Source of the DNA: a virus
Direction: 5' to 3' (one strand)
DNA: 37,956 bases
Virus genome (UHGV): UHGV-0192057
The stretch's first letter is position 1, and every line of letters starts with the position of its first letter. Made by a program: the position numbers and the translations under genes. This document shows positions 11,154-36,983 of the stretch, piece by piece. The notes below the pieces were generated by a model. The model was not told where the DNA came from and ran no database searches. It was given only the letters and a program-made list of their open reading frames with translations.

Positions 11154-11201
11154 CAAAAGACCATGAACATGACCAGAAACAGCAAACCGAAGGAGCACAC
11201 C

Positions 11202-11707: not shown

Positions 11708-11739
11708 CCCCAACAATAAAACCAACACGGGAGACAAAT

Positions 11740-12057
11740 ATGCCAACACAGGTTGCAACAGAGGGACGACTGGCAGCAGACCCGAACACAAGGAGAACAA
11801 CCAAAGGAACCAACGTCACAACGGCACAACTGGCGGTATCACTACCCTGCCATGGCGCAGAACAGCCAACCACAATGTGGCTTTACCTTATTTCATTCGG
11901 GAAGCAGCACGAAGAACTGGCAAAACACAGAAAAGGCGATCTGATTCTGGTGCACGGAAACTTGCAGGTAAACAGGTATCAGGACAAGTACGGGCAACAG
12001 AAAGAGGGCTGGCAGCTGCTGATGCAAAGCATTATCAGCTCAAGAACCGGGCGATGA
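11740..12057 (+). CDS. SSB-like OB-fold protein, short (105 aa, no acidic C-terminal tail)
   Basis: N-terminus EGRLAADPNTRRTTKGTNVTTAQLAVS resembles the SSB beta1-beta2 region; lacks the C-terminal DDDIPF-type tail. Confidence 0.5.
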   Translation: MPTQVATEGRLAADPNTRRTTKGTNVTTAQLAVSLPCHGAEQPTTMWLYLISFGKQHEELAKHRKGDLILVHGNLQVNRYQDKYGQQKEGWQLLMQSIISSRTGR

Positions 12058-12067
12058 CTTCACGCAT

Positions 12068-12091
12068 GTTACCCTCAGCAGCGAGGGTAAC
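12068..12091. terminator. Hairpin between convergent SSB-like gene and hotspot membrane gene
   Basis: gttaccctc-agcagc-gagggtaac 9-bp stem, followed by a T-run on the plus strand. Confidence 0.45.
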
Positions 12092-12106
12092 ACAGGATTT
12101 CTTTTT

Positions 12107-12751
12107 TCAGTCAAACCGAAATCGGCCGCTTGTCGCGTATGCATAGGTGACCACCGCACCCAGCGCATTCACACGCTTCTTCACATAAATCACATTACCA
12201 TCCTGATAGTCACCGTATGGGTAGCAAATAAAGATTGTTTTTTGCAAATCAGGATCATCAACAAATGCCCCTGAACAACTTTTTGAGCTACCGCGACTGT
12301 ACTCATAGGGAGCGGAATAGAATGAATCTTCACCCGGAAGAAAATATATCAGCGTAACCAGGAGGGTAAACAGAATCATCCAGGTAAGAAGGCACATACC
12401 CGAAAAAAACTTAAGATACGATGTAACCCCGGTAAATTTAGACCGATCAACCAGGTTCTTTTTCAACAGGCACAGTGAGACAAAAACCGAAAGCACCACA
12501 GACACTGAAACAAGGCAGTTTGTCGTGAACGAATAAAGGTAGGTAATTCTGTAAACATCGTTTCGCCACCAAATAAAAAGAAAAATCCCCCCCAAAACAG
12601 AAAGCGTGACAAAAGTTAAATAAGGATATGAGTAATTTTTCACAGTTCTCACCCGGCAATACACCACTGATTCAGACAGATGATTATCATCACCACCCAC
12701 CCCCAAAAATCGCAAGATAAAAAATGCACAAAAGCGCACGAAATTGCACAA
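12107..12751 (-). CDS. Hypothetical 3-TM membrane protein in the AT-rich tin/old-equivalent hotspot (start uncertain)
   Basis: 214-codon open frame in conspicuously AT-rich DNA; three hydrophobic segments and a roughly 85-aa C-terminal soluble domain. The track start is TTG; in-frame ATGs occur only near codon 123. Confidence 0.5.
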   Translation of the reverse strand: MCNFVRFCAFFILRFLGVGGDDNHLSESVVYCRVRTVKNYSYPYLTFVTLSVLGGIFLFIWWRNDVYRITYLYSFTTNCLVSVSVVLSVFVSLCLLKKNLVDRSKFTGVTSYLKFFSGMCLLTWMILFTLLVTLIYFLPGEDSFYSAPYEYSRGSSKSCSGAFVDDPDLQKTIFICYPYGDYQDGNVIYVKKRVNALGAVVTYAYATSGRFRFD

Positions 12752-13197
12752 TTTTTCTTATGTGTTTCATCCCCATTCAGCCCAGTAACGGCGCTGGCTG
12801 AGGCCGGTTTGCACGGTGCACGAAAAACGAGGCAATTGCAGCGCGCAGGCGACGAGGGAAGGGCGCCCGAATTGAGGGGTGGAAGGCAGGTTGCTTTATT
12901 TGGGGTCGTATTGCGCGTGATACGCACGCAGTGAAGCCGGTTCTGAAAAAACCACACCGAAACAGAGTCAGAAAAACAGGCCGCCAGAATGCGTCTGGTT
13001 GAGTTTTACGGGGTCGGGATTAAATGCGGAAACATCACACCGCAGGCATGACGCGAAAAAGAGAAAAACCACAGCAAAACATAATGTTAAATGTTATTGA
13101 TGAGTTGAGAAGCGAAAGGTGTATTGCGTTGACAGAGCTGGAGAGTCGGGGCATAAATTTTTTATGCCCCGGCGAAGCAGCCGACAAGCGAAGCGCG

Positions 13198-15980: not shown

Positions 15981-16047
15981 TGACGCCCCCTTGCTGTTTG
16001 ATCTCAAGAGTAAACGCCCGCGCATTCATCCAGGTATCCGGTGCCAT

Positions 16048-16065
16048 TGTCGCCACGCTCTTACA
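16048..16065. promoter_or_regulatory. Ogr-type activator box (TGT-N12-ACA) between divergent P and O
   Basis: tgt-cgccacgctctt-aca centred about 55 bp from plausible transcription starts on both sides; P2 late promoters carry this dyad at about -55. Confidence 0.55.
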
Positions 16066-16137
16066 ACATCGCCGCCTTGAGGCGCAGCCATCCCCTTATC
16101 ATCATGAAGAAAAGCAACCCACAGAAAGGGGATTTAC

Positions 16138-21111: not shown

Positions 21112-23082
21112 ATGAGCAAAAAACACTTTGAACTGATTACTGCCACCAACCGCGCAGAATTCGCTGAAAAAGTTAACAAGCGGTTACAGGAAGGCTGGGA
21201 ACTTCTCGGTAATGCCGGTATTGCATCAGAGCCGGGAGTCCCCTGGTATCTCATGCAGGCTATGGTTTCAGGCAGTGATGACCAGGGAGGCACCATTATC
21301 ACCCCGACATCCGACAGCGAACCGGAGTGGTATTACGTTGTGGTGAGCGCTGGTCAGTCCAACTCTATGGCATACGGTGAGGGGTTACCTCTCCCGGACA
21401 GTTACGATAAACCCGATTCGCGCATTCGCCAGCTGGCACGCCGCAGCACCGTAACCCCGAGCGGAAAAGCCTGTGCCTATAACGACATCATTCTGGCGGA
21501 TCACTGCCTGCATGACGTGCAGGATATGAGCCAGTACAACCACCCGAAAGCCGACCTGAACAAAGGTCAGTATGGCTGTGTGAGTCAGGGATTGCACATT
21601 GCGAAGCGCCTGCTGCCATTTATCCCGGCAAATGCGGGGATCCTTCTGGTCCCATGCAGCCGTGGCGGTTCCGGCTTTACAACCGGTGATGCGGGGCAAT
21701 TCAGCGAGATCGGCGGCGCAACTGAAAAATCCTGCCGCTGGGGAACGAACACGCCGCTGTACAAGGATTTAATCAGCCGCACAAAAGCAGCGCTGGCGAA
21801 AAATCCGAAAAACGTCCTGCTGGCCGTCTGCTGGACACAGGGCGAGGCAGATCTTGAGAAAGAACAAAACGCCGCACAGCATAAAGATCTTTTCACAGCC
21901 ATGGTGAAGCAGTTCCGGGCTGACCTGGCCGATGTTGCGAAGCAGTGCAACCAGGGCAACCCTGAAAGCGTGCCGTGGATTTGTGGAGATACCACCTACC
22001 ACTGGAAAAAAACCTACGAAGCACAGTACGCAACCGTGTATGGCGGATACAAAAACAGCACTGAGAAGAATATTGTTTTTGTGCCTTTTGTTACGGATGA
22101 GTACGGGAAAAACACCCCAACAAACGAGCCGACAGAAGATCCGGATATTGCGGAAGCGGGTTATTACGGTGCCGCATCCCGCAGTAGCGGAAACTGGGTA
22201 AGCCATCTGCGTGGAACGCACTTCAGCTCATGGGCCCGCCGGGGCATTATTGCCGATCGCATGGCGTCAGCAATCCTGCTTAACGTCGGCCGCACGCTGC
22301 CATTTATTGCGGGTACAGAGCCGGAACGCGTGGCAAAACCATCACAGGATGCACCGGGCGGCATCAGTAAGCCATCTTCACCGGAAACAGAACAACCGGC
22401 AGTCAGACCGGGGCCGGTCACGCTCATGAGTCTGCTGGCATCATCTCCTGAACTGGAAAGCCAGGGCTGGACGCTGAGCGAAGGCAAAAACGGGGCCAAC
22501 ACACCAAAACAACTGAAAGACATGCTGATCGGTGATGAGGAAGCAACAGGGAAAAAAGCCCTGAAACTGACCAAACAGGAAGGCAATACCTGGTATCTGG
22601 ATCATAAGGCCGGTAATGGTGCTGACCTTCTGAAAAATGGCGGGACTGTAAGTTGCCGATTCAAAATCGAGGGTGAGCTGAAAAAAGACCAGTACGCAAT
22701 GGCGATGTACTGGAAAACATCAGCATTACCGCAGGATGTGAAATTACTGGGGGCAGATCCAAATAATTTATTGCTCTCATTCTTTCTTCAGACAGACAGC
22801 GCAAACCTGAATCTGATGTATCACAAAACGCCAAACGAACAACTGGGAACCTTTGGTCAGTTCAATAACAACTGGCACACCATAGCGTTTCGTTTTGCGG
22901 GAAACAACAGCACCCAGGTAACACCGGTTCTGGATGGCGTGGACGGAAAACCGTTCATGCTTTCCACATCAAAAGCCGATGTTACCAACGACACGTTACG
23001 CGTGACCGATATCACGTATCGGCCGACCTATACCGTACTGATTGACAGCCTGAGCGTTGTCGTAAATCAGCCACCGGCATAA
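21112..23082 (+). CDS. NanS-p-like sialate O-acetylesterase (DUF1737-like N-terminus + SASA/SGNH esterase core + C-terminal domain)
   Basis: 656 aa; motifs VVVSAGQSNSMAYGEG (GQSN catalytic-Ser block), PCSRGGSGF, WTQGEADL; N-terminus MSKKHFELITATNRAEFAEKVNKRLQEGWELLG resembles the DUF1737 domain of prophage NanS-p esterases. Family assignment is from memory. Confidence 0.6.
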   Translation: MSKKHFELITATNRAEFAEKVNKRLQEGWELLGNAGIASEPGVPWYLMQAMVSGSDDQGGTIITPTSDSEPEWYYVVVSAGQSNSMAYGEGLPLPDSYDKPDSRIRQLARRSTVTPSGKACAYNDIILADHCLHDVQDMSQYNHPKADLNKGQYGCVSQGLHIAKRLLPFIPANAGILLVPCSRGGSGFTTGDAGQFSEIGGATEKSCRWGTNTPLYKDLISRTKAALAKNPKNVLLAVCWTQGEADLEKEQNAAQHKDLFTAMVKQFRADLADVAKQCNQGNPESVPWICGDTTYHWKKTYEAQYATVYGGYKNSTEKNIVFVPFVTDEYGKNTPTNEPTEDPDIAEAGYYGAASRSSGNWVSHLRGTHFSSWARRGIIADRMASAILLNVGRTLPFIAGTEPERVAKPSQDAPGGISKPSSPETEQPAVRPGPVTLMSLLASSPELESQGWTLSEGKNGANTPKQLKDMLIGDEEATGKKALKLTKQEGNTWYLDHKAGNGADLLKNGGTVSCRFKIEGELKKDQYAMAMYWKTSALPQDVKLLGADPNNLLLSFFLQTDSANLNLMYHKTPNEQLGTFGQFNNNWHTIAFRFAGNNSTQVTPVLDGVDGKPFMLSTSKADVTNDTLRVTDITYRPTYTVLIDSLSVVVNQPPA

Positions 23083-23146
23083 CAATGCTTCCCAGCCATC
23101 CGGCGGGGAAGCTCGCTGACAACCGGGAAAATAAAAGGAGCAAGCC

Positions 23147-23311
23147 ATGGGATTTATTCATCAGATAATGTTGTATTTCAGTACCGCCGTATCCCTTCTG
23201 TATCTGATCTCAGGGGGATATAAAGCCGTCCGCAATTTCTGGAACAAAAAGATAGATGAAGCAGCCGCCAGGAAATCAGCTGGCGGAGCGGTCAACGGGG
23301 TATTGCCATAA
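23147..23311 (+). CDS. Small membrane protein (54 aa)
   Basis: Hand-translated MGFIHQIMLYFSTAVSLLYLISGGYKAVRNFWNKKIDEAAARKSAGGAVNGVLP; strong AAGGAG 7 nt upstream; below the ORF-track cutoff. Confidence 0.45.
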   Translation: MGFIHQIMLYFSTAVSLLYLISGGYKAVRNFWNKKIDEAAARKSAGGAVNGVLP

Positions 23312-23483
23312 CAACAGGCACAGCGCATCAGAACGGCACCACTGTCCACAGCAAAAGAAACAAAAAACCCTCCGGTATACGGAGGGTGCAAGAGGGGAAA
23401 GGTGAGCAAGAAAGAACCCGAATTAAAAGCCATTTAATTTTGAGATTTTTAATTGCCACACGCAACACGTTCTACGGTGTTTT

Positions 23484-23954: not shown

Positions 23955-24586
23955 GAGCGGACCGCGAACTGGATGCCATCTTTCAGGATATTCTTTCCGG
24001 CCTGTCGGCAGCCGGAATTCAGCGCACGGCAATGAGCGTGGGTAAGGTCGTCCGACAGCTACAGACAAAACGCATCAGAAGCCAGGTATCCCCGGAAGGC
24101 CAGCCATGGGAGAAACGAAAACGCCGCATCATGCGCATACAAAAAGGCGTGAAGTTTATCTGGAAGGACGGCCAGGTAAGAAACCTGAAAAACTGGAGCA
24201 CGTCACAGGGATGTTTCGGGCAGAAAATCACCGGCTACGATACGGACGCCGGGGGGATCAGGACGTTTTACAAGGCAGACATCGGGGACTACCTGGAAAT
24301 TAACACACAGCGCGTCGCAGCAAGAGCATCACGTCGCTCACCTATGTTCGAAAAGCTGAGAACAGCACGCTTTCTGAGAATCATCCCCGACACAAACGGC
24401 GTAAGTGTCGGCTTTCAGGGCCGGGCCGCGCGTATTGCCAGAGTGCACCAGTTCGGTGAGGTGGGCCTGGTATCACCCGGGAACGCCACGAAATACCCCG
24501 TGCGCGAGCTGCTGGGCCTGAACGAAAAAGACAAACAGCAAATCACAGAAACCGTGATTGCCGGACTGGGGAAAGCAGCGAAATGA
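23951..24586 (+). CDS. S: Tail completion / virion morphogenesis protein S (gpS)
   Basis: ATG at 23951; stop overlaps the V start. Confidence 0.75.
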   Translation: MRADRELDAIFQDILSGLSAAGIQRTAMSVGKVVRQLQTKRIRSQVSPEGQPWEKRKRRIMRIQKGVKFIWKDGQVRNLKNWSTSQGCFGQKITGYDTDAGGIRTFYKADIGDYLEINTQRVAARASRRSPMFEKLRTARFLRIIPDTNGVSVGFQGRAARIARVHQFGEVGLVSPGNATKYPVRELLGLNEKDKQQITETVIAGLGKAAK

Positions 24587-26412: not shown

Positions 26413-27124
26413 AACGGTGCTTCCGCCGTCTGCCAGTGTTTTTCTGAAAACCGTTGATCGCTCCGGGGAAAAAATCAGCCAGCTGCCGGTGAAACTTAAC
26501 ACCCTGTGGAATGCGGACGAATGCCCTGAAGTACTGCTGCCATGGCTCGCATGGACGCTTTCAGTGGACAGATGGGATAAGGCATGGACGGAAGAGACTC
26601 GCCGGGACGTTATACGCGAGTCGTGGATGGTTCACCGTCATAAGGGGACCATCAGCGCCATGAGAAGAGCTATTGCCCCGTTCGGCGCGCTGCTGAGCAT
26701 TACAGAGTGGTGGGAAAACGGCGACCCTCCAGGCAGTTTTCGTCTCAACATCGATGTTACACATGCAGCCCTGACAGAGGCGACCTATCAGGAAATGGAG
26801 CGCATGATTGCGCTGGCGAAGCCGGTAAGCCGTCACCTGAAAGCACTGAGGCTGACATACATTGCAAAAGGGGAAGTCTTTACCGGGGCAGTGAGTCATA
26901 GCGGAGACATCATACAGGTATATCCGGACGCAACACTGCCGAACCCCTGCATTACCGGAGGAGAAATTTATTGTGCTGGCGCGATTTACGACAGTGACAT
27001 AACCCGGGTTAAACCGGATACGGAGATACCGTCACCGTGCGCCGCACAAGCCGCTATCTGTATAGCCGGAACAACATACGACGGCACAACGACCATCGTA
27101 AAACCGGCACCGGAGGAACCATGA
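26405..27124 (+). CDS. I: Tail/baseplate protein I (gpI)
   Basis: 239 aa between J and the tail fibre. Confidence 0.82.
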   Translation: MSKTVLPPSASVFLKTVDRSGEKISQLPVKLNTLWNADECPEVLLPWLAWTLSVDRWDKAWTEETRRDVIRESWMVHRHKGTISAMRRAIAPFGALLSITEWWENGDPPGSFRLNIDVTHAALTEATYQEMERMIALAKPVSRHLKALRLTYIAKGEVFTGAVSHSGDIIQVYPDATLPNPCITGGEIYCAGAIYDSDITRVKPDTEIPSPCAAQAAICIAGTTYDGTTTIVKPAPEEP

Positions 27125-28728
27125 CACAGAAATACAAAACCATTATCACCACTGAGGGCCGCCGGAAGCTGGCCGAAGCCCTGAAGCCCGGTGGAAAAAA
27201 AGTCACCCTGGCAAAGATGCAGGTGGGCGACGGCAACGGCCAGGAAGTGGAGCCATCAGAAGGGCAAAAACAACTGGTGAAAAAAGTCTGGGAAGGGAAT
27301 ATCTCCAGCATCACACAGGATGCGGAGAATGAAAGCTTTGTCACCGCAGAGCTGGTTATTCCTGCTGACCAGGGCGGCTTCTGGGTGAGGGAGATTGGGT
27401 TATTTGATGATGAAGGTGCCCTGATTGCTGTTGGCAACGTAGCAGAAGGTTACAAACCGAAGCTGGAGGAAGGTTCAGGTCGGGAGCAGGTATTCAGGAT
27501 GGTTATTCTCCTGAGTAATATTTCTGCGCTGAATATTAAACTGGATCAGTCAGTTGTCATGGTCACAAAAGCCGCTCTGGATCAGGCCATCAAAGAACAT
27601 GAAAAAAGCGGCACCCACCAGTCTGCATCCACAAGCACAAAGGGATTTGTGCAACTGAGCAGTGCCACCGACAGTGACAGCGAAGAAACAGCCGCAACCT
27701 CTAAGGCCATCAAAACGCTGAAAGGAATGATTAATGAAAAATCTTCAGTCACTGACGCCACGACCAGCCAGAAAGGCATCGTCCGGCTGAGCAGCGAAAC
27801 GGGCAGCGCCGCCGAAAACGCCGCTGCAACACCAAAGGCAGTCCAGCTCACCATGCAGAAAGCCACTGAAGCCGAAAAACTGGCTGAACAGGCTAAACAG
27901 AGTGCACAGGCAGCAAGTGAGAAAGCCTCAACACTGGAGCAACAAATCAATGCCACAAACCAGACCGTACAACAACTTCAACAGTCAACACAAAGCGGAG
28001 CACAGAAGGCGAAATATACCGCGCTGACCGTTGATCTCAATACACTGGGAAAACCAGAACACCACGGGGATTACTATCAGTCGGCCAATAAAGATGCAAC
28101 CACCGCCATGCACTACCCCGTTGAACAGGCGGGATACCTGTCCGTGAAAATGGGAGCCTGGGGTTTCTGTCAACAGGAATACACTACATGGAACCCCATC
28201 AGGAAGTTTGTCAGGGCTGTCAACGGTAATTTCACCGGAAATGGTCCATGGACGGACTGGAAGGAACTGGGGGCCGAGGGGCCAGCGGGTCGACAAGGAC
28301 CTGCCGGGCCGACGGGGCCGACGGGACCGACGGGGCCGCAGGGGAACACCGGACCACGAGGTTTGCAGGGAGAAACAGGAAGACAGGGCCCGACAGGTCC
28401 ACAGGGCCCGACAGGTGAACCCGGACCACAGGGGCCAACCGGAAGGCTGGTACCCGGGGAAATTTACAGCATCGGAACATACATTATTGCCGCACTAGCC
28501 CCGTATATAACCGACATCGGCAGAACCTATCAGCCAGGAGAAACTGTATCGGGTTCACGCCTTAAGCGATGCGCCCTAATCAAAGACGAAAACGGAAACT
28601 ATATGAAAGCTAACACCGATGGCATTGACGGCAAACTATCCTCAGTTCCGGGCTCATGGATGGTGTGTAATGAAATTACGTCGACAAATGATAATGAAAG
28701 CATCGGGCTGTTCCAGCGCGCATACTGA
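27121..28728 (+). CDS. H: Tail fibre protein H (gpH) with collagen-like Gly-X-Y repeats
   Basis: ATG at 27121 overlapping the I stop; conserved N-terminus MTQKYKTIITTEGRRKLAEA; internal GPAGPTGPTGPTGPQGNTGPRGLQGETGRQGPTGPQGPTGEPGPQGPTG stretch; variable C-terminus. Confidence 0.85.
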   Translation: MTQKYKTIITTEGRRKLAEALKPGGKKVTLAKMQVGDGNGQEVEPSEGQKQLVKKVWEGNISSITQDAENESFVTAELVIPADQGGFWVREIGLFDDEGALIAVGNVAEGYKPKLEEGSGREQVFRMVILLSNISALNIKLDQSVVMVTKAALDQAIKEHEKSGTHQSASTSTKGFVQLSSATDSDSEETAATSKAIKTLKGMINEKSSVTDATTSQKGIVRLSSETGSAAENAAATPKAVQLTMQKATEAEKLAEQAKQSAQAASEKASTLEQQINATNQTVQQLQQSTQSGAQKAKYTALTVDLNTLGKPEHHGDYYQSANKDATTAMHYPVEQAGYLSVKMGAWGFCQQEYTTWNPIRKFVRAVNGNFTGNGPWTDWKELGAEGPAGRQGPAGPTGPTGPTGPQGNTGPRGLQGETGRQGPTGPQGPTGEPGPQGPTGRLVPGEIYSIGTYIIAALAPYITDIGRTYQPGETVSGSRLKRCALIKDENGNYMKANTDGIDGKLSSVPGSWMVCNEITSTNDNESIGLFQRAY

Positions 28729-28747: not shown

Positions 28748-29347
28748 ATGTGGAAAAAAATAAGCAATCCGCAATGGGCAGATAAAGATCACACTGCTGT
28801 CAATTGCATGGTGAAGTTTGAGCACATTGAGCAGGCGGTTCCTTTCACTGCAACAGCCAGCGATACCGAAGCATACGGGCGGGATATTTATGCCGCTTGT
28901 CTGAGAGGAGAGGCCGGTGAAATTGCAGAATATGTACAGCCATCCATCAGCCCGGAAAAAGCCAGAGAACTCAAAACCGCCGGGATCAACGCCTGGCGGA
29001 ACAGAATGGAATCAGCCAGTTATATTTTCAGCTTTAATGGCCGTAACTGGGATTATGGAAAGGAAACACAGGATCGCCTTGGCCCATCAGTTATCGCAGC
29101 AAAAGAAGGCAATCTCCCGGAGAAGTTTTTCTGGACAGACGCAGACAACAACGACGTCCCCATGACTGCGGAAGAACTGATTGCGCTGAGTGAAGCCGCG
29201 CAACAGGCAATGTTCGCGAAGGGAATGGAAATTCATGTGCGCCAGCGCAACATGAAAAAAGAGATTGCAGAACTTCAGGATGCGGAGGCCATTCAGCGTT
29301 ACGTTGTGGGCTGGCCCACAACGGAAGAACCCGCCACCGAAAGATGA
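28748..29347 (+). CDS. G: Tail fibre assembly chaperone (gpG)
   Basis: 199 aa immediately after H; Tfa-like. Confidence 0.8.
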   Translation: MWKKISNPQWADKDHTAVNCMVKFEHIEQAVPFTATASDTEAYGRDIYAACLRGEAGEIAEYVQPSISPEKARELKTAGINAWRNRMESASYIFSFNGRNWDYGKETQDRLGPSVIAAKEGNLPEKFFWTDADNNDVPMTAEELIALSEAAQQAMFAKGMEIHVRQRNMKKEIAELQDAEAIQRYVVGWPTTEEPATER

Positions 29348-29355
29348 ACAGCAAA

Positions 29356-29377
29356 AACGCCCTGACACCAGGGCGTT
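29356..29377. terminator. Bidirectional rho-independent terminator between convergent G and U
   Basis: aacgccctg-acac-cagggcgtt 9-bp stem flanked by an A-run upstream and a T-rich run downstream. Confidence 0.55.
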
Positions 29378-29382
29378 ATTAT

Positions 29383-29856
29383 TTAAACCGGAATGGACAG
29401 ATTATTCAGGGCACCTTTGACGTTATTCGCAAGATCACCAAGCGACGAGGACTGAAGACGTTCACGCAGATCTTCATCCACACGCTCAAAAGTGACAGTA
29501 AACTCAATCTTTCTTGCCCGACCATAGCGATCAAGTTCAGAGCGGGTGGTGTTAAGCCCGGTAATGACATACATCCCGTAAATCTGCCCTACCCCATCAA
29601 TCAGCGGCCATGGTCGCCCGACGTAAGCCTGGCTGGTCAGTGCGGTCAGGGAGACTTCACCGCCCGTAATTTCCGGGTAGAGCAAACCCGAAAGCGTGAT
29701 GGTATCGTCACCCGCGCCGATATACTGCCAGCTGGCTGAGCGGTTGATTCGCTCGTTCTTTACATGCCTCCAGTTACGGGACTGTTGTATTTGTTGGTGT
29801 GGCAGTGTGCTTAACTGAAAAACAAACATGCCGTAAATCATCATCATAACCATCAC
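29383..29856 (-). CDS. U: Tail protein U (gpU)
   Basis: 157 aa; N-terminus MMVMMMIYGMFVFQLSTLPHQ and core (WPLIDGVGQIYGMYVITG) match P2 gpU from memory. Confidence 0.85.
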   Translation of the reverse strand: MMVMMMIYGMFVFQLSTLPHQQIQQSRNWRHVKNERINRSASWQYIGAGDDTITLSGLLYPEITGGEVSLTALTSQAYVGRPWPLIDGVGQIYGMYVITGLNTTRSELDRYGRARKIEFTVTFERVDEDLRERLQSSSLGDLANNVKGALNNLSIPV

Positions 29857-29858
29857 TC

Positions 29859-32744
29859 CTAATCACGATCGCGGAAACTGTTCATACCGCCGGATTGTCT
29901 GCGAATTTCTTCCCGTACCGCCTCCCCCACCATTCTGGCAAGGTCGCGAGGGTTCTGCGTAACCACGTTGTGAAGGTGAACATGAATATCACCACCGTAC
30001 ACAGACGGCGGTTCAGGAGAGCGCGAAGGCCCCCGGGGTGTCGGGGACACCGGATCCCACCGCTTAACCTCCACAGGACGGGAAGAATCCGGGGAAACCG
30101 CCGGAGACACAGGCGAAAACGCTGGCATAAGCGGAAGCCCGGGTGCAACAGTCGGTTCATTCCACTGCCCGCGAACAGCCAGCGCACGGGGGAGATTTTT
30201 AAACACGATATCGCCAGGACCGATACGCTTGCGGGCTTCCTGAAGCATACCCGACGTATTACCCTCGATACCTTTGAGCCTGCGAAGAACGCCACTGGTG
30301 CCGTCGTTTATGACAGAAGGCTTGCCACCATTATTACCTTTATCATTGCCATCAACTGGCTTAGCGGGCGAGATAATGGCATTAACATCCCCCTGAAGCA
30401 GGGAGAGCTTGCCCTGAAGAAGCGAAGCCCGCTGTGCATCCTCCAGTTTCCGGCGCGCCCTTTCAGCTTCATCAGGCAGCACGCCAAGCTTTTCCAGTAC
30501 CCAGGCAAGTCCATCCATCAGCGCCTTCAGCGGCGTAAGCGCAAGCGATATCGCCCCACTAAGTACACGACCGAAGCTTTCTCCCGCAGACGTACACCGT
30601 TCAAGAGATTCGTTGCTGGCCTGAACAGGCGTGAGTAACCGGGTAAACCAGTCAAACACCGTGGACACCGCACCCGACACCAGATCAAACAACGGCGCAA
30701 ACTGAGCAATACTTTCACGAACAGGCGCAAGGCCAGCCCACAGCGACCGGAATGTGCCGAGCATGAACGCCTTAACCTGTTCCCAGTGACGCCATATGAG
30801 CAGCGCCCCACCGGCAAGAGCAGCAATCACGAGACCAACAGGACTGAGAAGACCGGAAAGCACCCCGCCCAGCACAGAAACCGCACCGGAGACCATCCCC
30901 CACAGTGCCGGAAGGCCGGACAGGCGAAGAGCAAGACCACCAACACCGTTTGTAAGCGAGGACAGCCCGCCACCAAGAAGCGCAGAGCCAAGCTGAAGTT
31001 TTGCAAAAATCCCCGTCAGTAACCCACCTCCGACAGACAACGCACCAATGGCCGTTGTGGCCGCAAGCACGCCACCCACGGTAAGGGTCAGCGTGCGTAC
31101 AAGCTGCGGGTTTTCCTGAACCCACGACCTGAAGCGTTCACCCACAGAAGCAACAGCCTGTACAAGCTCGCGGATATCATCAGTAACCAGCGACACAACA
31201 TCACTGCGAATACCGGAGAAAATGCCGGACAGACGATCGGTGTCGCCGCCGAGGTTGTCACGCAGAACATCCCCCATTCGCCGGGCGGTTCCCTGAACCA
31301 GCCCCATACGGTCAGATACCGTTGCAAGCGACCGGAGAAAATCCGGGATCTGGTCAACAGCCAGATCTTCAATGGGTGTGCCGAACAGCGCTATCGCCGC
31401 ATTGGCCCGTTCTGCAGGATCCTGAATCTGTAACAGACCTGACGCGGTGCGACGCATCGCTTCACGCGCGGCCGCGCCGCCACTGGCGATCGCTGACGAC
31501 ATTCTTTCAGCGTTAAGGCCAATCAGCTCATAGGCTTCAACGCTGGATTTGGACATATCCGAGCCGCGAATACTGAATTCTTTGACAGCATCGCCGGTTT
31601 TATCCAGGGCGAATTTCCCCTGCTGCGCCATGCTGACAAGCAGCGTCATGGTTTCAGAGCCGGATAGCCCCATATTGCGGAAATGCGTGGAATACTCATG
31701 CAGAATTTCAGGAAGTTCGCCGCGCATTTCGGCAGACATTTTCTGCATCCCTGCCGCCATCAGGTCGACGGCCTCACCTGCATTTGCGGCAAGCCCGTTT
31801 TTCAGCATAATGCCAGCAGCCTGAACCTGTTCAGCCACATTACCGCCGGTGACCTGAGCAAGATCGATTGCCTGCCGTGTCACCCTTTCCAGTTCTTCAG
31901 TCCCTACGGTACCCAGTGCGCCAAGCGTGCTTTGCGCCGCAGCTGCTGCTTCCGAAATCATCGCGATATCCGTGGCCGCACCTGACGCACGGATGCTCTG
32001 AATCATACGGCTGTAGCGCTGGCCGTCTTCTGCGCTGCCGCCACTCTGTGCCGCAATGAGCGCACCCTGCCGTTGCTCTTCAACAACAGGTGCAACCGCG
32101 CGACCGGCAGCATACAGACCGGCACTGCCAGCCGCCATGGCAACAGCACCGCGCTGACTGAGCTTACCGGCAATATCCTGAACACGGTCATAGCGTTGCT
32201 GCGCCTGCGTGACGCGTGCAAGCTGGCCCCGCTGGCGTTCGAGCTGATCGTTGTATTCCTGCGTCCGCCTGATTGCCCTCTCGACCGCACGGTTACTTCC
32301 GTCCGCCCGTATACCGTGAGATTCCAGTTCGCGACTGGCTTCGCTAAGTCGGGATTTGTGGAGGGAATAAACCGTATTAAGGCGATCAATCTTCACAGTC
32401 ATCGAGCGGATAGCTTCCTGCTGTTTTTCCGTTAGTGTTGTGCCTGTACGCTGGGCCTCCTGGAGGCGCTGAAGTCGCGCACGCGCCTCGTTCAGACTGT
32501 TTTCAGTCGAGGTCACCTGCTGGCGGGCACGGGAAAACGCATCACTGCTTCGCTGGAGTGACTTAAGAGCGTTCTGCGTGGAGGAAAGAGATTCGGAAAG
32601 CGCGCCGGTCATTTCCCGGGCGCGCCTGACGGGTTGAGTGAGACGGTCGACCGCAGTAAGGGCTACACGTATCTGGAGATTATTACTCATCGTTATGATT
32701 CCCGGTTCTGACGGCCGCCCGTTCTCGCCAGGCAACCAGTTCAC
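29859..32744 (-). CDS. T: Tail tape measure protein (gpT)
   Basis: 961 aa, alpha-helical N-terminus, Gly/Ala-rich hydrophobic central region; GTG start at 32744 overlaps the E' stop (GTGA); an internal ATG near 32690 is an alternative start. Confidence 0.88.
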   Translation of the reverse strand: MNWLPGENGRPSEPGIITMSNNLQIRVALTAVDRLTQPVRRAREMTGALSESLSSTQNALKSLQRSSDAFSRARQQVTSTENSLNEARARLQRLQEAQRTGTTLTEKQQEAIRSMTVKIDRLNTVYSLHKSRLSEASRELESHGIRADGSNRAVERAIRRTQEYNDQLERQRGQLARVTQAQQRYDRVQDIAGKLSQRGAVAMAAGSAGLYAAGRAVAPVVEEQRQGALIAAQSGGSAEDGQRYSRMIQSIRASGAATDIAMISEAAAAAQSTLGALGTVGTEELERVTRQAIDLAQVTGGNVAEQVQAAGIMLKNGLAANAGEAVDLMAAGMQKMSAEMRGELPEILHEYSTHFRNMGLSGSETMTLLVSMAQQGKFALDKTGDAVKEFSIRGSDMSKSSVEAYELIGLNAERMSSAIASGGAAAREAMRRTASGLLQIQDPAERANAAIALFGTPIEDLAVDQIPDFLRSLATVSDRMGLVQGTARRMGDVLRDNLGGDTDRLSGIFSGIRSDVVSLVTDDIRELVQAVASVGERFRSWVQENPQLVRTLTLTVGGVLAATTAIGALSVGGGLLTGIFAKLQLGSALLGGGLSSLTNGVGGLALRLSGLPALWGMVSGAVSVLGGVLSGLLSPVGLVIAALAGGALLIWRHWEQVKAFMLGTFRSLWAGLAPVRESIAQFAPLFDLVSGAVSTVFDWFTRLLTPVQASNESLERCTSAGESFGRVLSGAISLALTPLKALMDGLAWVLEKLGVLPDEAERARRKLEDAQRASLLQGKLSLLQGDVNAIISPAKPVDGNDKGNNGGKPSVINDGTSGVLRRLKGIEGNTSGMLQEARKRIGPGDIVFKNLPRALAVRGQWNEPTVAPGLPLMPAFSPVSPAVSPDSSRPVEVKRWDPVSPTPRGPSRSPEPPSVYGGDIHVHLHNVVTQNPRDLARMVGEAVREEIRRQSGGMNSFRDRD

Positions 32745-32837
32745 CGGGAGTCATCACAAAGATTTCAGAGGGCGACCAGTGAAATACAACGGCTATATCA
32801 GCGACAATATCTTCAACGTAATCAAAAGCAAGAAGCG

Positions 32838-33218
32838 TTACGCGCCGCCCGCCTCCTGCGCCTTCTTCGCTGACGAGGGAAGCAAAAAACCGACTGCCAC
32901 CTCGTACAGTTTAAAGAAGTCTTCCGGGCACATTGACATAAGTGCCGCGCGGCTGAGGTGAGGTTCAGTTACGCGTTCCAGAAAAATGGCGGCAGCATCA
33001 ACATCGGTGTTGAACAGGTCCGTCATGCGGATCCCTCGAAGCGAGCCCACCTGACGCGCAAGCGCCCCAATCTTCACGCTGGAAACCGTCTTATTACCGC
33101 AGACAACAGGAACCCTGAGATTAACCGTGTCATTTGCGATCGCCTCTGCGTTTTCCGTGTCGCCATTCGTCACAGCATCTGTGTCATTCGTCACGATATT
33201 TTCTTCAGTCTGATCCAT
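32838..33218 (-). CDS. E: Tail assembly chaperone E (gpE); E+E' frameshift product would extend to about 32740
   Basis: 126 aa upstream of T. Slippery TTTTTTG near the 3' end (minus strand, plus coordinates 32883-32889); the -1 frame stays open for about 50 codons and ends at TGA overlapping the T start. Confidence 0.75.
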   Translation of the reverse strand: MDQTEENIVTNDTDAVTNGDTENAEAIANDTVNLRVPVVCGNKTVSSVKIGALARQVGSLRGIRMTDLFNTDVDAAAIFLERVTEPHLSRAALMSMCPEDFFKLYEVAVGFLLPSSAKKAQEAGGA

Positions 33219-33269
33219 TATTTTTCTCCCGGGGCAACAGGACGCCGCCCCTGTTATCAGATTTAACTA

Positions 33270-33782
33270 TCAGCCAAGCCCCAGCATGGAGCGGGTGCGG
33301 TCAGGAAGAACATCATTACCATCAATGCGCCAGATGAAGTTCAGCACGTCGATTTCAATAACATCGCTGTTATCAACGCTGAGCTTGTACCAGGTGCATT
33401 TCATCGCATAGGTATGTTCGGTATCTTCACCCTGTTTGGCCTCGCCCTTGTCGATTTCGACAATGCGACCACGGGCTTCAATATCGACGTACTCAATCCC
33501 TTCTTCGGAATAGTATTCACCCGAGAAGCGAACACGCACGGCATCAATACCGGCGGCGTATTTAGCAAAGATGTGACGATCGACGCCACCAACCGCAAAG
33601 GAGAGATCCAGTGCACCATCATCAAGACCGAGATCCACCGACGCAGAGCCAGGCATACCCGCCCCGCGATACGACTCTGTTTTGCGGGTCAGTTTTGGCG
33701 GGGTAAAAGACGTCACCTTGCCCAGCTTGTTGTCACCGTCCACAAAGACGGTAAACACACGAAGTTTTTTTGGTACGGCCAT
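33270..33782 (-). CDS. FII: Tail tube protein (gpFII)
   Basis: 170 aa; P2 FII-like (MAVPKKLRVFTVFVDGDNKLGKVTSFTPP...). Confidence 0.9.
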   Translation of the reverse strand: MAVPKKLRVFTVFVDGDNKLGKVTSFTPPKLTRKTESYRGAGMPGSASVDLGLDDGALDLSFAVGGVDRHIFAKYAAGIDAVRVRFSGEYYSEEGIEYVDIEARGRIVEIDKGEAKQGEDTEHTYAMKCTWYKLSVDNSDVIEIDVLNFIWRIDGNDVLPDRTRSMLGLG

Positions 33783-34987
33783 TAGCTACCTCCAAGAGAT
33801 GCAAAAGCAGAGCCAAAGAACTCGTCGGTAAACGTCTGATAGAGTTCCATACATTCCATCGGTGGTACGGGCGTGTATTTGTAGCGAATACGCACAATGC
33901 CCTGACGAAGACTGGTTGTATTGTTGTCGACAATATCGAACCAGCATTCCGCCCCAATGAGTTTTCCGGCTGTCACCAGTGCATCCAGCTTTGCCTTGAT
34001 AGCGCTCACGGCATCCTTAGCATTGGCAGGCGTAAGCGGTGAATCCACTATCTGAAGTTGCGCCTCCGCAATGGTGTCAGCCAGTTGCTGCGCCGTACGT
34101 GTGTACACCTCAAAGATGTACTCCGCAGTTTCCGGCGTACGGTTACCCCAGAAACGGAAGGAGCCGTCGCCCTGGTGAATAAGAGTGGTCACCTCGCTGT
34201 TGTTCAGCGTGTTGGCATCGCTGTTTTCATCCTGAAGTGACCAGGAAACAGACGCTGACACCCCAAGAACATTTTTCACAGGCATGTTAGAAAGGGAGCG
34301 ATGCCAGCCCTGTTCATGGTCGAGTCGGGCACGAAGACCGCACGCATACGCCGCAGCCGGGAAGGTTTCGTTTTTACCGGACACCGGGTTGAACGCAATG
34401 AAATCAGGCCACAGAAGCATGATTTCGCGACCGGAAATCTTTTTACGGAACGCAATAGCATCGGACGGTTTTGTGCAGCCAGGGCAGCCGGAATACGCAA
34501 ATGCGCGCATTTTTCCGGCAACAGTCACCAGTGCAGCCGTGACAGCATCCGATTCAAGGCCCGGAGCGGCAAGAATGCGGGGTCGGCAACCAATACCTTC
34601 CATCTGTTCGGCAACCAGAAGCGCCTGCATACCGCTGTAGCTTCCGTCTTCTTCCGTGGTACCAATGACCAGTTGATCCTGTGTTTTATTCTCAGCCCCC
34701 TCTTTTGCCGCCTCCACGCGAACGACAATCACCCGTGTACTGACCTGGTCAGATATCGCTTTAAGGGCCTTATAAAGCGTGCCCGCTTTCCCGGCCTTCC
34801 CCAGAACAGAAGATACACGGGTAATCAGCACTGGCTTGTTAAGGGGGAACTGCCCGGTATCCGCATCATCTGCAACGGCAACAATACCAATGACGCTGGA
34901 ATCAACGTCATTAATGGCCGTCACAAGGTCGGTATTCTCCGTGACGCGCACACCGTGAAATCGTTTTTCAGCCATACGATTCACCAT
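33782..34987 (-). CDS. FI: Contractile tail sheath protein (gpFI)
   Basis: 401 aa; P2 FI-like. Confidence 0.93.
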   Translation of the reverse strand: MVNRMAEKRFHGVRVTENTDLVTAINDVDSSVIGIVAVADDADTGQFPLNKPVLITRVSSVLGKAGKAGTLYKALKAISDQVSTRVIVVRVEAAKEGAENKTQDQLVIGTTEEDGSYSGMQALLVAEQMEGIGCRPRILAAPGLESDAVTAALVTVAGKMRAFAYSGCPGCTKPSDAIAFRKKISGREIMLLWPDFIAFNPVSGKNETFPAAAYACGLRARLDHEQGWHRSLSNMPVKNVLGVSASVSWSLQDENSDANTLNNSEVTTLIHQGDGSFRFWGNRTPETAEYIFEVYTRTAQQLADTIAEAQLQIVDSPLTPANAKDAVSAIKAKLDALVTAGKLIGAECWFDIVDNNTTSLRQGIVRIRYKYTPVPPMECMELYQTFTDEFFGSAFASLGGS

Positions 34988-35050
34988 CAGTTGTGTTTAT
35001 GCTCGCCTGAATAATCCACCATTGGCGCACAGCCATCACCTGATGCGGGC

Positions 35051-35068
35051 TGTGGGGATTTTTTTACA
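35051..35068. promoter_or_regulatory. Ogr-type activator box (TGT-N12-ACA) in the divergent FI/D intergenic region
   Basis: tgt-ggggattttttt-aca; about 55 bp from plausible transcription starts for both FI (minus) and D (plus). Confidence 0.5.
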
Positions 35069-35128
35069 ACAGAGCCAGACAGAAACGACAAGGTACGCGT
35101 GGGATGATACGCACACGGGAGGGATATC

Positions 35129-36274
35129 ATGAGCATCACTGAATCAGTAACACATCACATCAACAGCGCACTGGATGCAGCGGAAGATACCGTTAGGGTG
35201 CCAGACTTCACTATCACACTGGAAGGGAAAGATGCCAGCCTGAAGAACATCACGCAGCGCATCATGAGCCTGACCATGACAGACAACAGGGGTTTTGAGG
35301 CTGACAGGGTGACACTGGAAATCGACGACGCCGACGGCGGGGTGGTACTTCCGGAACGCGGAACACGATTATCGCTGGCGATGGGGTGGAAAGGTGAAAG
35401 CCTCACTCGCAAGGGGACGTTTGTGGTGGACGAAGTGAGCCACGAAGGTCCGCCGGATAAGCTGACCATATCCGCGAACAGTGCGGATTTTCGCGAAGAG
35501 TTTAACGTGAAACGCGAAGTCTCCTGGCATGACGTGACCGTTGAGCGTGTGGTATCTGCCATCGCGCACCGTTACGGACTGAAAGCACAAATCAGCGAAA
35601 TGCTGATGAATATCGAAATCGACCATGCAGACCAGACAGAGGAAAGCGACATCTCGTTCCTCACGCGTATGGCTGACATGCTGGGTGCAATAACCACCGT
35701 AAAAAACGGGAGCCTGCTGTTCATTCTGCCGGGTGGCGGTGTGACAGCCAGCGGGCGCGCCCTCCCCTCATTCGCCCTGACCCGCTCGGATGGCGACAGT
35801 CATCGCTTTCGCATTGCTGACAGAAAAGCCTATACCGGAGTGAAAGCTTACTGGCTGGATTTAAAGTTCGGCCAGAAGAAGGCCGTGAACGTGAAAAAGC
35901 GAAACGCGAAAACCACACAGAAGCCGGAGAAAAGCAGTTCACGGGAGGGTGGATACATGGAAGGCGCAGAAGGCAATGTATATGTGCTGAGAAAAACCTA
36001 CCCGAACGAAGAAGCCGCGCGTCGCGCAGCTGCCGCACGCTGGCAGCAACTTCAGCGGGGTGCAGCAGAATTCAGCATCACGCTGGCGCGCGGACGCGCC
36101 GACCTGTATCCGGAGATGCACGGCACGGTATCCGGGTTCAAGAGCGATATTGACAATCAGGACTGGGTTATTTCGCGCATTGAGCACGTCATCGACGACA
36201 GCGGCTTCACCACCAGACTGGAGCTGGAAGCAAAAATCGCAGACTGGATAGCAGAGCGCGCCACAACTGGCTAG
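35129..36274 (+). CDS. D: Late control / tail protein D (gpD)
   Basis: 381 aa with GGGAGGG upstream; P2 gpD-like; followed by ogr. Confidence 0.9.
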   Translation: MSITESVTHHINSALDAAEDTVRVPDFTITLEGKDASLKNITQRIMSLTMTDNRGFEADRVTLEIDDADGGVVLPERGTRLSLAMGWKGESLTRKGTFVVDEVSHEGPPDKLTISANSADFREEFNVKREVSWHDVTVERVVSAIAHRYGLKAQISEMLMNIEIDHADQTEESDISFLTRMADMLGAITTVKNGSLLFILPGGGVTASGRALPSFALTRSDGDSHRFRIADRKAYTGVKAYWLDLKFGQKKAVNVKKRNAKTTQKPEKSSSREGGYMEGAEGNVYVLRKTYPNEEAARRAAAARWQQLQRGAAEFSITLARGRADLYPEMHGTVSGFKSDIDNQDWVISRIEHVIDDSGFTTRLELEAKIADWIAERATTG

Positions 36275-36315: not shown

Positions 36316-36618
36316 ATGCATCCTTGCCCATACTGCGGAGCAAGTACCCGCACCAGAACAAGCCGCGACGCCAACGATACAGGAACAATCAGGGAGAAAT
36401 ATTACCAGTGCAACAACATTGAATGCAGCGCCACCTTTGTGACGCACGAGTTTGTCGTGAGAACCGTATGCCGTCCGCAACCCACCGAAGAACGGGGAGT
36501 CGTCCCCGCAGACGCTTTCAAATCATGCCACCGGGGAAGGGATCAACTCAGCCTCCCCCTGGGCGATTGCGCCTCCCAGTCAAAAACTGTACATTACGCG
36601 CGGGTGCCTTTCGGCTGA
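36316..36618 (+). CDS. ogr: Ogr/Delta-family zinc-finger late transcription activator (3' end uncertain)
   Basis: N-terminus MHPCPYCGASTRTRTSRDANDTGTIREKYYQCNNIECSATFVTHE carries the C-x2-C...C-x4-C Ogr zinc finger. The open frame runs to 100 aa versus about 72 in P2. Confidence 0.8.
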   Translation: MHPCPYCGASTRTRTSRDANDTGTIREKYYQCNNIECSATFVTHEFVVRTVCRPQPTEERGVVPADAFKSCHRGRDQLSLPLGDCASQSKTVHYARVPFG

Positions 36619-36749
36619 CGGCTGGAAGGATTACCTGAAGGCCGGATGTGGAAAGGCCCCGAGTCAAACATATTGTTTAACCCGAGGCCCTGACCATCTA
36701 ACCGTGACAAGTGGAAGGTTAGCGCCTCTTTGAAAAAGGAGCAAGCGCT

Positions 36750-36890
36750 ATGCCGCAAAAAACGATCATCGTGAGCATTTTATGCTTAACCATGTTGTTG
36801 ACCGTCTGGATGATACACCGTTCACCGTGTGAGTTCAGACTTAACATCATGTGGTCAGAATTTGCGGCGTTCTTGCAGTGTAAACAGTAA
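36750..36890 (+). CDS. Hok/Gef-family type I toxin (HokA-like, 46 aa)
   Basis: Hand-translated MPQKTIIVSILCLTMLLTVWMIHRSPCEFRLNIMWSEFAAFLQCKQ; AGGAG 9 nt upstream; resembles E. coli HokA from memory (MPQK..., TWMIRDSLCE..., AAFLACK); single TM then conserved Cys. Confidence 0.6.
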   Translation: MPQKTIIVSILCLTMLLTVWMIHRSPCEFRLNIMWSEFAAFLQCKQ

Positions 36891-36983
36891 GAAACCGCAG
36901 CGGGGGTGAAAGCCCCCGCTATCCGGTTGCCGAAGGTTCGGTCGAAAGTCGCACCATCACACGCAAGTCACAAAGAAAAACAA

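Follow-up and report, generated by a model that had tools for sequence, protein, structure and literature searches.

Orientation of the tail genes and the fibre-U junction

The 37,956-nucleotide virus genome UHGV-0192057, which is the whole stretch of DNA analysed here and is called the window below, contains a P2-like contractile-tail module. The genes of the module, U, T, E/E', FII, and FI, are located on the minus strand, and the fibre genes, D, and an ogr-like gene are on the plus strand (Table 1). The identities of the genes were determined from Pfam profile matches, and several of their starts were taken from PGAP. FI, FII, E, T, U, and D all matched Pfam profiles, and the order FI-FII-E-T-U is that of the P2-like module. 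The match of E to Phage_TAC_7 was weak (E = 4.9e-4), under the curated cut-off. Pfam and annotation placed genes V, W, J, I, and H, which encode baseplate and fibre proteins, on the plus strand. The D protein is 48-76% identical to the D proteins of P2-like phages and prophages. The ogr-like gene is positioned 41 bp downstream of D, and its product has four cysteines arranged as CX2C-X24-CX4C.

The window shares with P2 the gene families, their internal order within the module, and the presence of an Ogr-type gene after D, at a protein sequence identity of approximately 46-49%. The P2 block runs in the same direction as genes V-G and D, with U overlapping D; the Z/fun region lies between G and the PF promoter, and V has its own promoter. 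In contrast, in the window the whole block intervenes between U and D, D is preceded by an upstream region of its own, and the operon structure of P2 is not found. The strands and Pfam assignments confirm the original prediction that the FI-to-U block reads leftward, unlike in P2, while D and ogr read rightward.

The tape measure protein probably starts at position 32690, rather than at 32744, which is reached by the longest open reading frame. The FI start at 34975 is favoured over that at 34987 by PGAP and homology, since alignments with homologues start at residue 5 of the longer reading frame, and a Shine-Dalgarno-like GGTG is positioned upstream of the ATG at 34975. The 141-bp FI-D spacer of the original prediction is obtained only with the upstream ATG at 34987; from the favoured start, the spacer is 153 bp long. 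At the sequence level, the programmed E/E' frameshift is intact. A simulated -1 shift at the slippery run leads into an open E' extension of 66-68 residues, which overlaps the ATG of T as in P2, and the homologous E+E' frameshift is annotated in the P2 record.

The gene that converges on U, previously identified as G, encodes a DUF4376 fibre-assembly-like protein with no demonstrated homology to gpG. It has approximately 89% nucleotide identity to tail fibre assembly regions of lambdoid Escherichia coli phages and belongs to a fibre-tip/chaperone cassette common to lambdoid coliphages. The collagen-like fibre gene at the H position is the penultimate gene of the rightward baseplate and fibre run. 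The 35-bp gap between the stop codons of the fibre-chaperone gene and U contains a stable hairpin, as was expected of a terminator signal separating the converging genes. Its folding energy is -16.1 kcal/mol on either strand (z = -5.2 and -4.3), and the U-run is good on the U side (UUUUUGCUGUU) and weaker on the plus strand (AUUAUUUAAA). Transcription would be expected to end at this hairpin, which is a probable terminator of the FI-U operon and possibly, with the weak U-run, also that of the fibre operon. With a crude scan, only 31 of 58 relatives yielded a hairpin followed by a T-rich tail downstream of U.

In related elements, the fibre-U junction carries cargo, including an alternative fibre cassette accompanied by an invertase, DUF262 with HEPN, a UvrD-like helicase, and DUF7380/DUF4209 genes, among others. 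The slot is empty in the window, and the proposed loss of the Z/fun cargo slot therefore applies to the window genome, but not to its relatives, in which the junction is filled.

Table 1 Features of the inverted tail block, its surroundings, and the P/O comparator site
Feature	Coordinates	Strand	Basis
Further perfect TGT-N12-ACA, in the middle of the divergent P/O spacer	16048..16065	.	Comparator
Tail fibre gene, H position, collagen-like repeat	27121..28728	+	Pfam Phage_tail_fib, Phage_fiber_2, Collagen; start from PGAP
Fibre-assembly-like gene, 'G' position	28748..29347	+	Pfam DUF4376, E = 2.8e-20
GC-rich hairpin	29356..29377	both	Terminator scan and folding
gpU tail protein	29383..29856	-	Pfam Phage_P2_GpU, E = 5.6e-40; PGAP start 29847
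gpT tape measure	29859..32690	-	Pfam PhageMin_Tail; PGAP start; sequence reading
E' extension	32683..32889	-	-1 frameshift at slippery run GGTTTTTTG, 32889-32883
gpE tail assembly chaperone	32838..33218	-	Pfam Phage_TAC_7; PGAP 'phage tail assembly protein'
gpFII tail tube	33270..33782	-	Pfam Phage_tube, E = 7.8e-49
gpFI tail sheath	33782..34975	-	Pfam sheath domains; PGAP start; longer reading frame starts at 34987
Predicted -10 GATTAT of the leftward FI (PF-equivalent) promoter	35011..35016	-	Conservation at fixed offset
Dyad TGT-N12-ACA, Ogr/Delta-type box, centre 35059.5	35051..35068	.	Exact match
Predicted -10 GATGAT of the rightward D promoter	35103..35108	+	Conservation at fixed offset
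gpD, baseplate hub / late control D	35129..36274	+	Pfam Phage_GPD
ogr/delta-like zinc-finger late activator	36316..36618	+	Pfam Ogr_Delta, E = 9.9e-16; translation

Putative shared control region between FI and D

The Ogr/Delta-dependent late promoters of P2 are characterised by a TGT-N12-ACA dyad centred approximately 55 nt upstream of the transcription start, a weak -10 element, and no good -35 element. The single TGT-N12-ACA box predicted in the FI-D spacer is present as an exact match. In 60 of 65 inverted relatives, the motif T[GC]T-N12-ACA is found a single time and always at the same position. Its half-sites show the highest conservation of all columns in the spacer; in 22 of 58 relatives, the left one reads TCT instead of TGT. 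Over the entire window, TGT-N12-ACA shows no enrichment (8 sites observed against 9.1 expected; with one mismatch allowed, 163 against 171). The number of boxes is therefore uninformative, and the significance of the FI-D box derives from its position and conservation. A position-weight matrix calculated from the boxes of 46 relatives was rejected as a promoter finder, because it was dominated by spacer composition and gave the window's own box a low score. The top match of the matrix, at 7300-7329, falls within a match to the isrK sRNA.

The box is flanked by two -10-like hexamers, the edges of which are both 43.5 nt from the box centre, so that they are exact mirror images of each other. Among 58 unique relatives, positions A2, A5, and T6 of the FI-side hexamer are retained in 95-97% of sequences, and those of the D-side hexamer in 95% (A2), 76% (A5), and 90% (T6). 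Both sides retain A2 and T6 in 50 of the 58 sequences. Outside the box, only these two mirrored offsets exhibit such conservation. The predicted transcription starts are near 35004 on the minus strand and 35115 on the plus strand, approximately 55 nt from the box centre. The FI start codon lies 84.5 nt from this centre, compared to approximately 83 nt at the PF promoter of P2.

The window contains a second perfect box between the divergent starts of P (15980) and O (16138), and a -10-like CATCAT at 16100-16105 has the same +43.5 offset from it. A one-mismatch box at 23299-23316 may indicate a further promoter upstream of R. In the RefSeq record of P2, a single 'activator binding site; pO, pP promoters' is listed at 3057-3087 and lies between the starts at 3016 (minus strand) and 3127 (plus strand). 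The PP/PO region of P2 thus has one dyad midway between divergent late starts approximately 111 bp apart, which is the geometry of the FI-D spacer. The PP' and PO' promoters of Stenotrophomonas phage Smp131 also use the same 18-bp site (PMC3931495). The spacer of the window differs from both in being flanked by FI and D instead of P and O, and its starts are predicted.

The central box plausibly serves both the FI and D promoters, and the two would depend on Ogr. The idea that one box could serve two promoters thus gains plausibility from the constant position of the box and the mirrored hexamers, but it is not novel, since a shared site is already annotated in P2.

Alternatively, the central box could serve the FI promoter only, with D and ogr expressed from an Ogr-independent promoter or under the control of another activator site that has escaped recognition. 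The first Ogr has to be produced in the absence of Ogr, ogr has a promoter of its own in P2, and the D-side hexamer is slightly less conserved at A5. The result of a consensus scan, which identified no sigma-70-type promoter in the FI-D spacer in either direction, can be read in the same way. However, the spacer contains just one conserved dyad, and its sole two conserved -10-like positions mirror each other around it. Furthermore, D is a structural late protein that requires expression at the late level, and PP/PO of P2 provides a direct precedent for sharing. We consider it unlikely that the box serves FI only. With a box shared by FI and D, the spacer would be a second natural example of a bidirectional Ogr-type site, and the prediction is easy to test with reporters.

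Distribution of the arrangement among phages and prophages

A megablast search of the region against phages matched only mosaic fibre-tip and hok/gef pieces and nothing over the block; therefore, searches at the protein level were needed. Cross-matching of the strands reported in the sheath and D searches identified 45 phage records with sheath identity of at least 53%, and in all 45 of them D is on the opposite strand, approximately 150 nt from the sheath start. The records span five ICTV genera and Serratia phage KSP20. The inverted layout is present in Xuanwuvirus P88 and P884B11, Novemvirus phiT5282H, Reipivirus ST16-OXA48phi5.4, Reginaelenavirus 3LV2017, Senquatrovirus SEN4/5, and KSP20. 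The record of KSP20 labels the genes as gpD-like on the minus strand and gpFI-like on the plus strand. At least 16 complete E. coli genomes carry the same prophage, with the same arrangement and identical junctions (at least 95% identity over the full length).

In a species-level genome scan limited to the best 80 of 433 candidates, 59 of the 80 loci, from approximately 30 genera of Enterobacterales, were inverted. More distant P2-like groups, and thus also the exact root of the inversion, are outside this sample. The D proteins of the 59 inverted loci are at least 58% identical to that of the window (58-76%), whereas those of the 21 loci of the P2 type are at most 53% identical. Neighbour-joining trees of D, which is outside the block, and of FI, which is inside, each contain an exact bipartition into inverted and colinear loci. 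The splitting of both trees by a single branch points to one ancient, fixed inversion.

P88 and its relatives (Xuanwuvirus; phiSM, P884B11, 500465-2, PhiR44_2, and Chuche) share with the window the rightward baseplate and fibre genes, the leftward U-T-E'-E-FII-FI block, and the rightward D followed by an ogr-like gene. Their FI-D spacer is approximately 150 bp long with the box in the same place, and hok/gef follows D and ogr. P88 differs in that its sheath and D proteins are only approximately 73% and 72% identical to those of the window, and that its fibre genes are separated from U by a DNA invertase gene and an alternative fibre cassette, in place of the 35 bp found at this junction in the window. 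The left half-site of the P88 box is TCT. Phages phiT5282H, ST16-OXA48phi5.4, 3LV2017, SEN4/5, and KSP20 have the same inverted block and divergent FI-D junction at sheath identities of 53-67%; ST16-OXA48phi5.4 has DUF262 with HEPN at the fibre-U junction, and SEN5 has a macro-domain gene among its fibre genes.

The D identity and the D and FI trees place the window inside the inverted group. The element belongs to Peduoviridae as a P88-like phage related to Xuanwuvirus, and its integration site in E. coli is between chpS and ytfP/tamB. It probably represents a distinct species or genus, outside those named under the ICTV nucleotide-identity thresholds; megablast gave no match to the block in any phage record.

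The synteny comparison runs against the implied oddity of the window's layout, since related P2-like references have the same orientation. Because the layout is shared by the named genera and by 59 of the 80 sampled loci (the best 80 of 433), it is an ordinary lineage arrangement, and the inverted tail block is very probably an old trait of the P88-like lineage. As a standard trait of a large and already classified P2-like group, it has little discovery value. Nevertheless, the inversion is a clean synapomorphy separating the P88-like group from the P2/186/Fels-2 group, and annotation and synteny-based prophage tools should not use P2 as the sole template for the tail modules of Peduoviridae. 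An explicit description of the inversion was not found in the texts on P88, phiSM, SEN4/5, Burkholderia P2-like phages, and Serratia PP4, or in the 2026 global survey of P2-like phages, although the genomes show it.

Proposed origin of the inverted block

Based on the gene order, the trees, and the structure of the FI-D spacer, an origin of the arrangement by a single in-situ inversion can be proposed. In the common ancestor of the clade, the segment comprising the PF promoter, FI, FII, E/E', T, and U would have been inverted once, one breakpoint falling between the fibre/cargo region and PF and the other between U and D. The orientation is now fixed, and the segment is not actively invertible. 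FI to U would still form one late operon, which the orthologous PF promoter would now drive leftward as far as the hairpin facing the fibre genes. In P2, the translation of D is coupled to that of U; after the inversion, D would have become the first gene of a new rightward unit running into ogr. Because the Ogr/Delta-type site is a dyad, the inversion would have put the PF box directly upstream of D, which would then need only a -10 element at the mirror-image distance. The outcome would be a bidirectional activator-dependent control region resembling the single P/O site of P2.

We speculate, with somewhat less than even confidence, that the late genes of the clade run from two bidirectional Ogr-type regions, P/O and FI/D, and that the dyad PF site made the inversion tolerable by feeding the orphaned D and ogr. 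If true, the clade would illustrate concretely how a palindromic activator site can buffer a rearrangement that breaks an operon, an idea for which we found no description in the literature searched.

Instead of being inverted in situ, a foreign module of sheath, tube, and tape measure genes could have been inserted backwards by mosaic replacement. The tail and fibre regions of P2-like phages are mosaic, the fibre tip and chaperone of the window are approximately 89% identical to those of lambdoid phages, and tail genes have been rearranged in other P2-like phages such as Smp131 (PMC3931495). Nevertheless, all the genes of the block are orthologues from the P2 family that retain the P2 internal order and E/E' frameshift, the identity of FI tracks that of D with the same split in both trees, and the spacing from FI to the box equals that of P2 PF. 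These observations make mosaic replacement improbable and argue for an inversion in situ.

A recent, strain-specific inversion, or a phase-variable segment flipped by a site-specific invertase, is very improbable. P88 and phiSM encode a Gin/Cin-type DNA invertase adjoining U, and the Gin, Cin, and Hin fibre systems likewise place a segment of the tail region in the opposite orientation, with invertases encoded nearby in relatives of the window. However, the P88 enzyme is positioned beside the alternative fibre cassette, not the FI-U block. No invertase gene was annotated or found in the window, and a search for inverted repeats at the ends of the block, such as the crossover repeats of those systems, returned only matches at chance level. 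Moreover, the segment in the window consists of 5.7 kb of essential structural genes, and all 62 inverted loci with a usable D sequence have a single orientation that tracks the phylogeny as one bipartition, in agreement with a clade-wide fixed inversion.

An assembly artefact of the contig, for which the short intergenic gaps at the breakpoints could hide mis-joins, has a negligible probability, since the same junctions are present in the 16 independently assembled E. coli genomes, in more than 45 phage records, and in 59 prophages of other species, and contain no repeats able to mislead an assembler. The original prediction of an evolved rearrangement rather than a misassembly is upheld by the recurrence of the junctions in these complete genomes and in isolated functional phages: P88 was induced and is plaque-forming (PMC5285337), phiSM shows spontaneous activity (PMC6456863), and particles of SEN4/5 were produced (PMC5261728).

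Inverted tail block of the window

The DNA represents a P2-like prophage of E. coli flanked by chpS and ytfP/tamB. Its tail genes FI-FII-E/E'-T-U are located on the strand opposite to D (table), and the gene identities determined by Pfam and the strands agree on this inversion, in line with the original prediction. The -1 frameshift of E/E' is intact, with the slippery run GGTTTTTTG at 32889-32883, and the -1 frame is open to 32683, overlapping the start of T. The FI start at 34975 is favoured by PGAP, homologue alignments and an SD-like GGTG, and the spacer between FI and D is then 153 bp long instead of the previously proposed 141 bp. The gene that had been called G matches DUF4376 and is not a demonstrated gpG homologue.

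Features of the inverted block and its surroundings
Feature	Position	Strand	Basis or sequence
V, W, J, I, fibre gene		+	
Gene at the G position	28748-29347		DUF4376 fibre-assembly-like protein (Pfam)
Hairpin between fibre genes and U	29356-29377		
U	29383-29856	-	Pfam
Tape measure T	29859-32744	-	Pfam; start probably 32690
E	32838-33218	-	Pfam
Tube FII	33270-33782	-	Pfam
Sheath FI	33782-34975/34987	-	Pfam
Predicted FI-side -10	35016-35011	-	GATTAT
Predicted activator site	35051-35068		TGT-N12-ACA
Predicted D-side -10	35103-35108	+	GATGAT
D	35129-36274	+	Pfam
Ogr/Delta zinc-finger gene	36316-36618	+	Pfam

Proposed control region between FI and D

According to the RefSeq record of P2, FI-FII-E/E'-T-U-D form one operon transcribed from PF, in which U overlaps D and the transcript continues into ogr. 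The same record contains one 'activator binding site; pO, pP promoters' at 3057-3087, flanked by the divergent pO and pP starts 3016 and 3127, 55-56 nt on each side. The phage Smp131 is reported to use a single 18-bp site for both PP' and PO' (PMC3931495). The logic of a shared site is textbook P2.

The TGT-N12-ACA motif expected between FI and D, a putative Ogr/Delta-type activator site (box), is present in the window, where the overall count of this motif is at chance level. In 60 of 65 inverted relatives a single T[GC]T-N12-ACA occurs, and its distance from the FI start is constant. When 58 unique spacers are aligned on the box without gaps, the two box halves, T.T and GCGACAACA, form the most conserved columns. 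Only two offsets outside the box display a conserved -10-like signature (xAxxAT), and these are mirror images of each other, each with its edge 43.5 nt away from the centre of the box. On the FI side, A2 and T6 of the hexamer are each conserved in 95% of the spacers; on the D side, A2 is conserved in 95% and T6 in 90%. Both hexamers are present in 50 of the 58. The predicted start sites in the window are near 35004(-) and 35115(+). The FI ATG is 84.5 nt from the box centre, compared with approximately 83 nt in P2 PF, which suggests that the FI-side promoter is orthologous to PF. These comparative data are consistent with the P2 shared-site design and with the earlier proposal that one box serves both the FI and D promoters, all promoter assignments in the window being predictions from sequence.

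Inversion of the segment from PF and FI to U would deprive D of its promoter. The same inversion would set the PF activator site, a dyad, directly upstream of D. It is plausible, if slightly short of probable, that this palindromic site made the operon-breaking inversion immediately viable, with the late genes expressed mainly from two bidirectional control regions. The main alternative, which concerns the mechanism only, is that D is served by an Ogr-independent or separate site; we consider it unlikely.

The P/O spacer (15981-16137) contains one perfect TGT-N12-ACA at 16048-16065, with CATCAT at the identical +43.5 offset from the box centre. The PGAP start of P at 15980 fits better than the longest-ORF start at 16025, because with the latter the predicted PP start would fall within P. 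S overlaps V (24583-24586), and therefore the gap that holds PV in P2 is absent from the window. The rightward late run has only one gap of appreciable size, at 23083-23483 upstream of R; this gap contains a one-mismatch box at 23299-23316 (GGT...ACAACA), which might be an extra late promoter.

Distribution and probable origin of the inversion

The arrangement is not unusual. The same orientation in related reference genomes had been named beforehand as what would refute the significance of the inversion, and it is seen in Escherichia phage P88 (Xuanwuvirus), Enterobacter phage phiT5282H (Novemvirus), Klebsiella phages ST16-OXA48phi5.4 (Reipivirus) and 3LV2017 (Reginaelenavirus), Salmonella phage SEN5 (Senquatrovirus), and a fragment of Serratia KSP20, in which the depositors named the divergent genes 'gpD-like' and 'gpFI-like'. 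Unlike the window, ENT90 and P2 are colinear. Cross-matching of tblastn strands for sheath and D placed D on the opposite strand, approximately 150 nt from the sheath start, in all 45 phage records with a sheath at least 53% identical to that of the window. A gpD alignment was also compared with one genome per bacterial species, and the best 80 of 433 loci were typed by tblastn with the tail proteins of the window. Fifty-nine of these 80 are inverted, all with D at least 58% identical to that of the window; they come from approximately 30 Enterobacterales genera, including Symbiopectobacterium, Edwardsiella, Citrobacter, Serratia, Erwinia, Pantoea, Enterobacter, Kosakonia, Klebsiella, Providencia, Xenorhabdus, Photorhabdus, Morganella and Yersinia. 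The other 21 are P2-type, with D at most 53% identical. An exact bipartition separates inverted from colinear genomes in two neighbour-joining trees, that of D, outside the block, and that of FI, inside it. The simplest reading of this is a single ancient inversion that has since become fixed and characterizes a large clade. The inverted layout is found in functional phages: P88 is inducible and plaque-forming (PMC5285337), phiSM is spontaneously active (PMC6456863), and SEN4/5 produce particles (PMC5261728).

That a foreign module was inserted backwards is unlikely, because FI and D have concordant phylogenies and the internal order, frameshift and promoter spacing of P2 are retained in the block. 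An assembly artefact is excluded by 16 complete E. coli genomes, assembled independently of one another, that contain the full 7.7-kb region and both junctions at no less than 95% identity, and an active invertible segment by the clean split of the best 80 of 433 loci according to D identity, the bipartition in both trees, and a search for inverted repeats flanking the block that found none; the window also contains no invertase gene. The inversion is neither an artefact nor a local event, and its reading as an evolved rearrangement stands.

Many deposited genomes classified by ICTV display the arrangement; no explicit description of it as an inversion was found in the literature that was accessible. 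The sheaths of the window and P88 share approximately 73% identity, and megablast returned no match covering the block. The element is a new member of the P88-like group.

One P88-like prophage, whose D and sheath are 71% and 73% identical to those of the window, similar to other enterobacterial matches, is located on a 226-kb contig labelled as the Gram-positive 'Vagococcus sp. WN89Y' (L016, NZ_JBQPOM010000071.1), an assembly that is probably contaminated or mislabelled. The P2-type locus of Yersinia sp. HM-2024 (L083, 7414-11128), in which U-D come immediately after gene I and the sheath-to-T genes are absent, is a degraded prophage. In Rouxiella silvae (L047, 1297-3448), alcohol-dehydrogenase-like and LysR genes adjoin the U end of an inverted block, suggesting that the prophage is truncated.

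Junction of the fibre genes with U, and other regions

The converging stop codons of the fibre genes and U are separated by a 35-bp gap with a hairpin of -16.1 kcal/mol on either strand (z-scores -5.2 and -4.3). Its U-run is good toward U and weak toward the fibre genes, which would make it a probable terminator for the U side and a possible one for the fibre side. The junction contains nothing else in the window. The same junction holds an invertase and alternative fibre cassette in P88, DUF262 alongside a HEPN protein in ST16-OXA48phi5.4, and, in four prophage loci, a UvrD-like helicase (L034), DUF7380/DUF4209 (L049), an MBL-fold protein (L078) and a tRNA_anti-like protein (L063). Because of this varied cargo, the Z/fun slot that was thought to be lost is better described as a positional equivalent of the P2 hotspot that persists in the clade and is unoccupied in the window. 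The adjacent segment 28314-29287, comprising the distal fibre end and the DUF4376 chaperone gene, is approximately 89% identical in DNA to tail-fibre regions of lambdoid coliphages (PhiR5/PhiR12 series, P-Eib phages), and the remaining tail module lacks a nucleotide match; the segment is a receptor-binding cassette that has been exchanged horizontally.

On the plus strand, isrK (7282-7356) and C4 antisense RNA (7392-7479), both matched in Rfam at the gathering level, directly precede a 'Derepression' family gene (7536-7757, +). The region 7282-7757 resembles an antirepressor module under antisense-RNA control, in the style of P1/P4, within a P2-like prophage, and P88 has a derepression protein annotated at the equivalent place. 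The late region encodes, between LysC of the lysis genes and R of the tail genes, a 656-residue protein with DUF1737, SASA (sialate O-acetylesterase-like) and DUF6645 domains (21112-23082, +); this protein resembles the esterase cargo that follows the lysis genes of lambdoid and Stx prophages. The hok/gef (MokW-like) toxin region after ogr (36582-36956) matches parts of Stx2-converting phages with approximately 84-85% identity, and P88 also has hok/gef in this position. The lower-GC region 10749-13197, from the replication gene to the portal gene, occupies the position of the P2 old/tin hotspot and encodes a MarR-like regulator, a short SSB and several proteins without a Pfam match, including that of a 214-residue minus-strand ORF.
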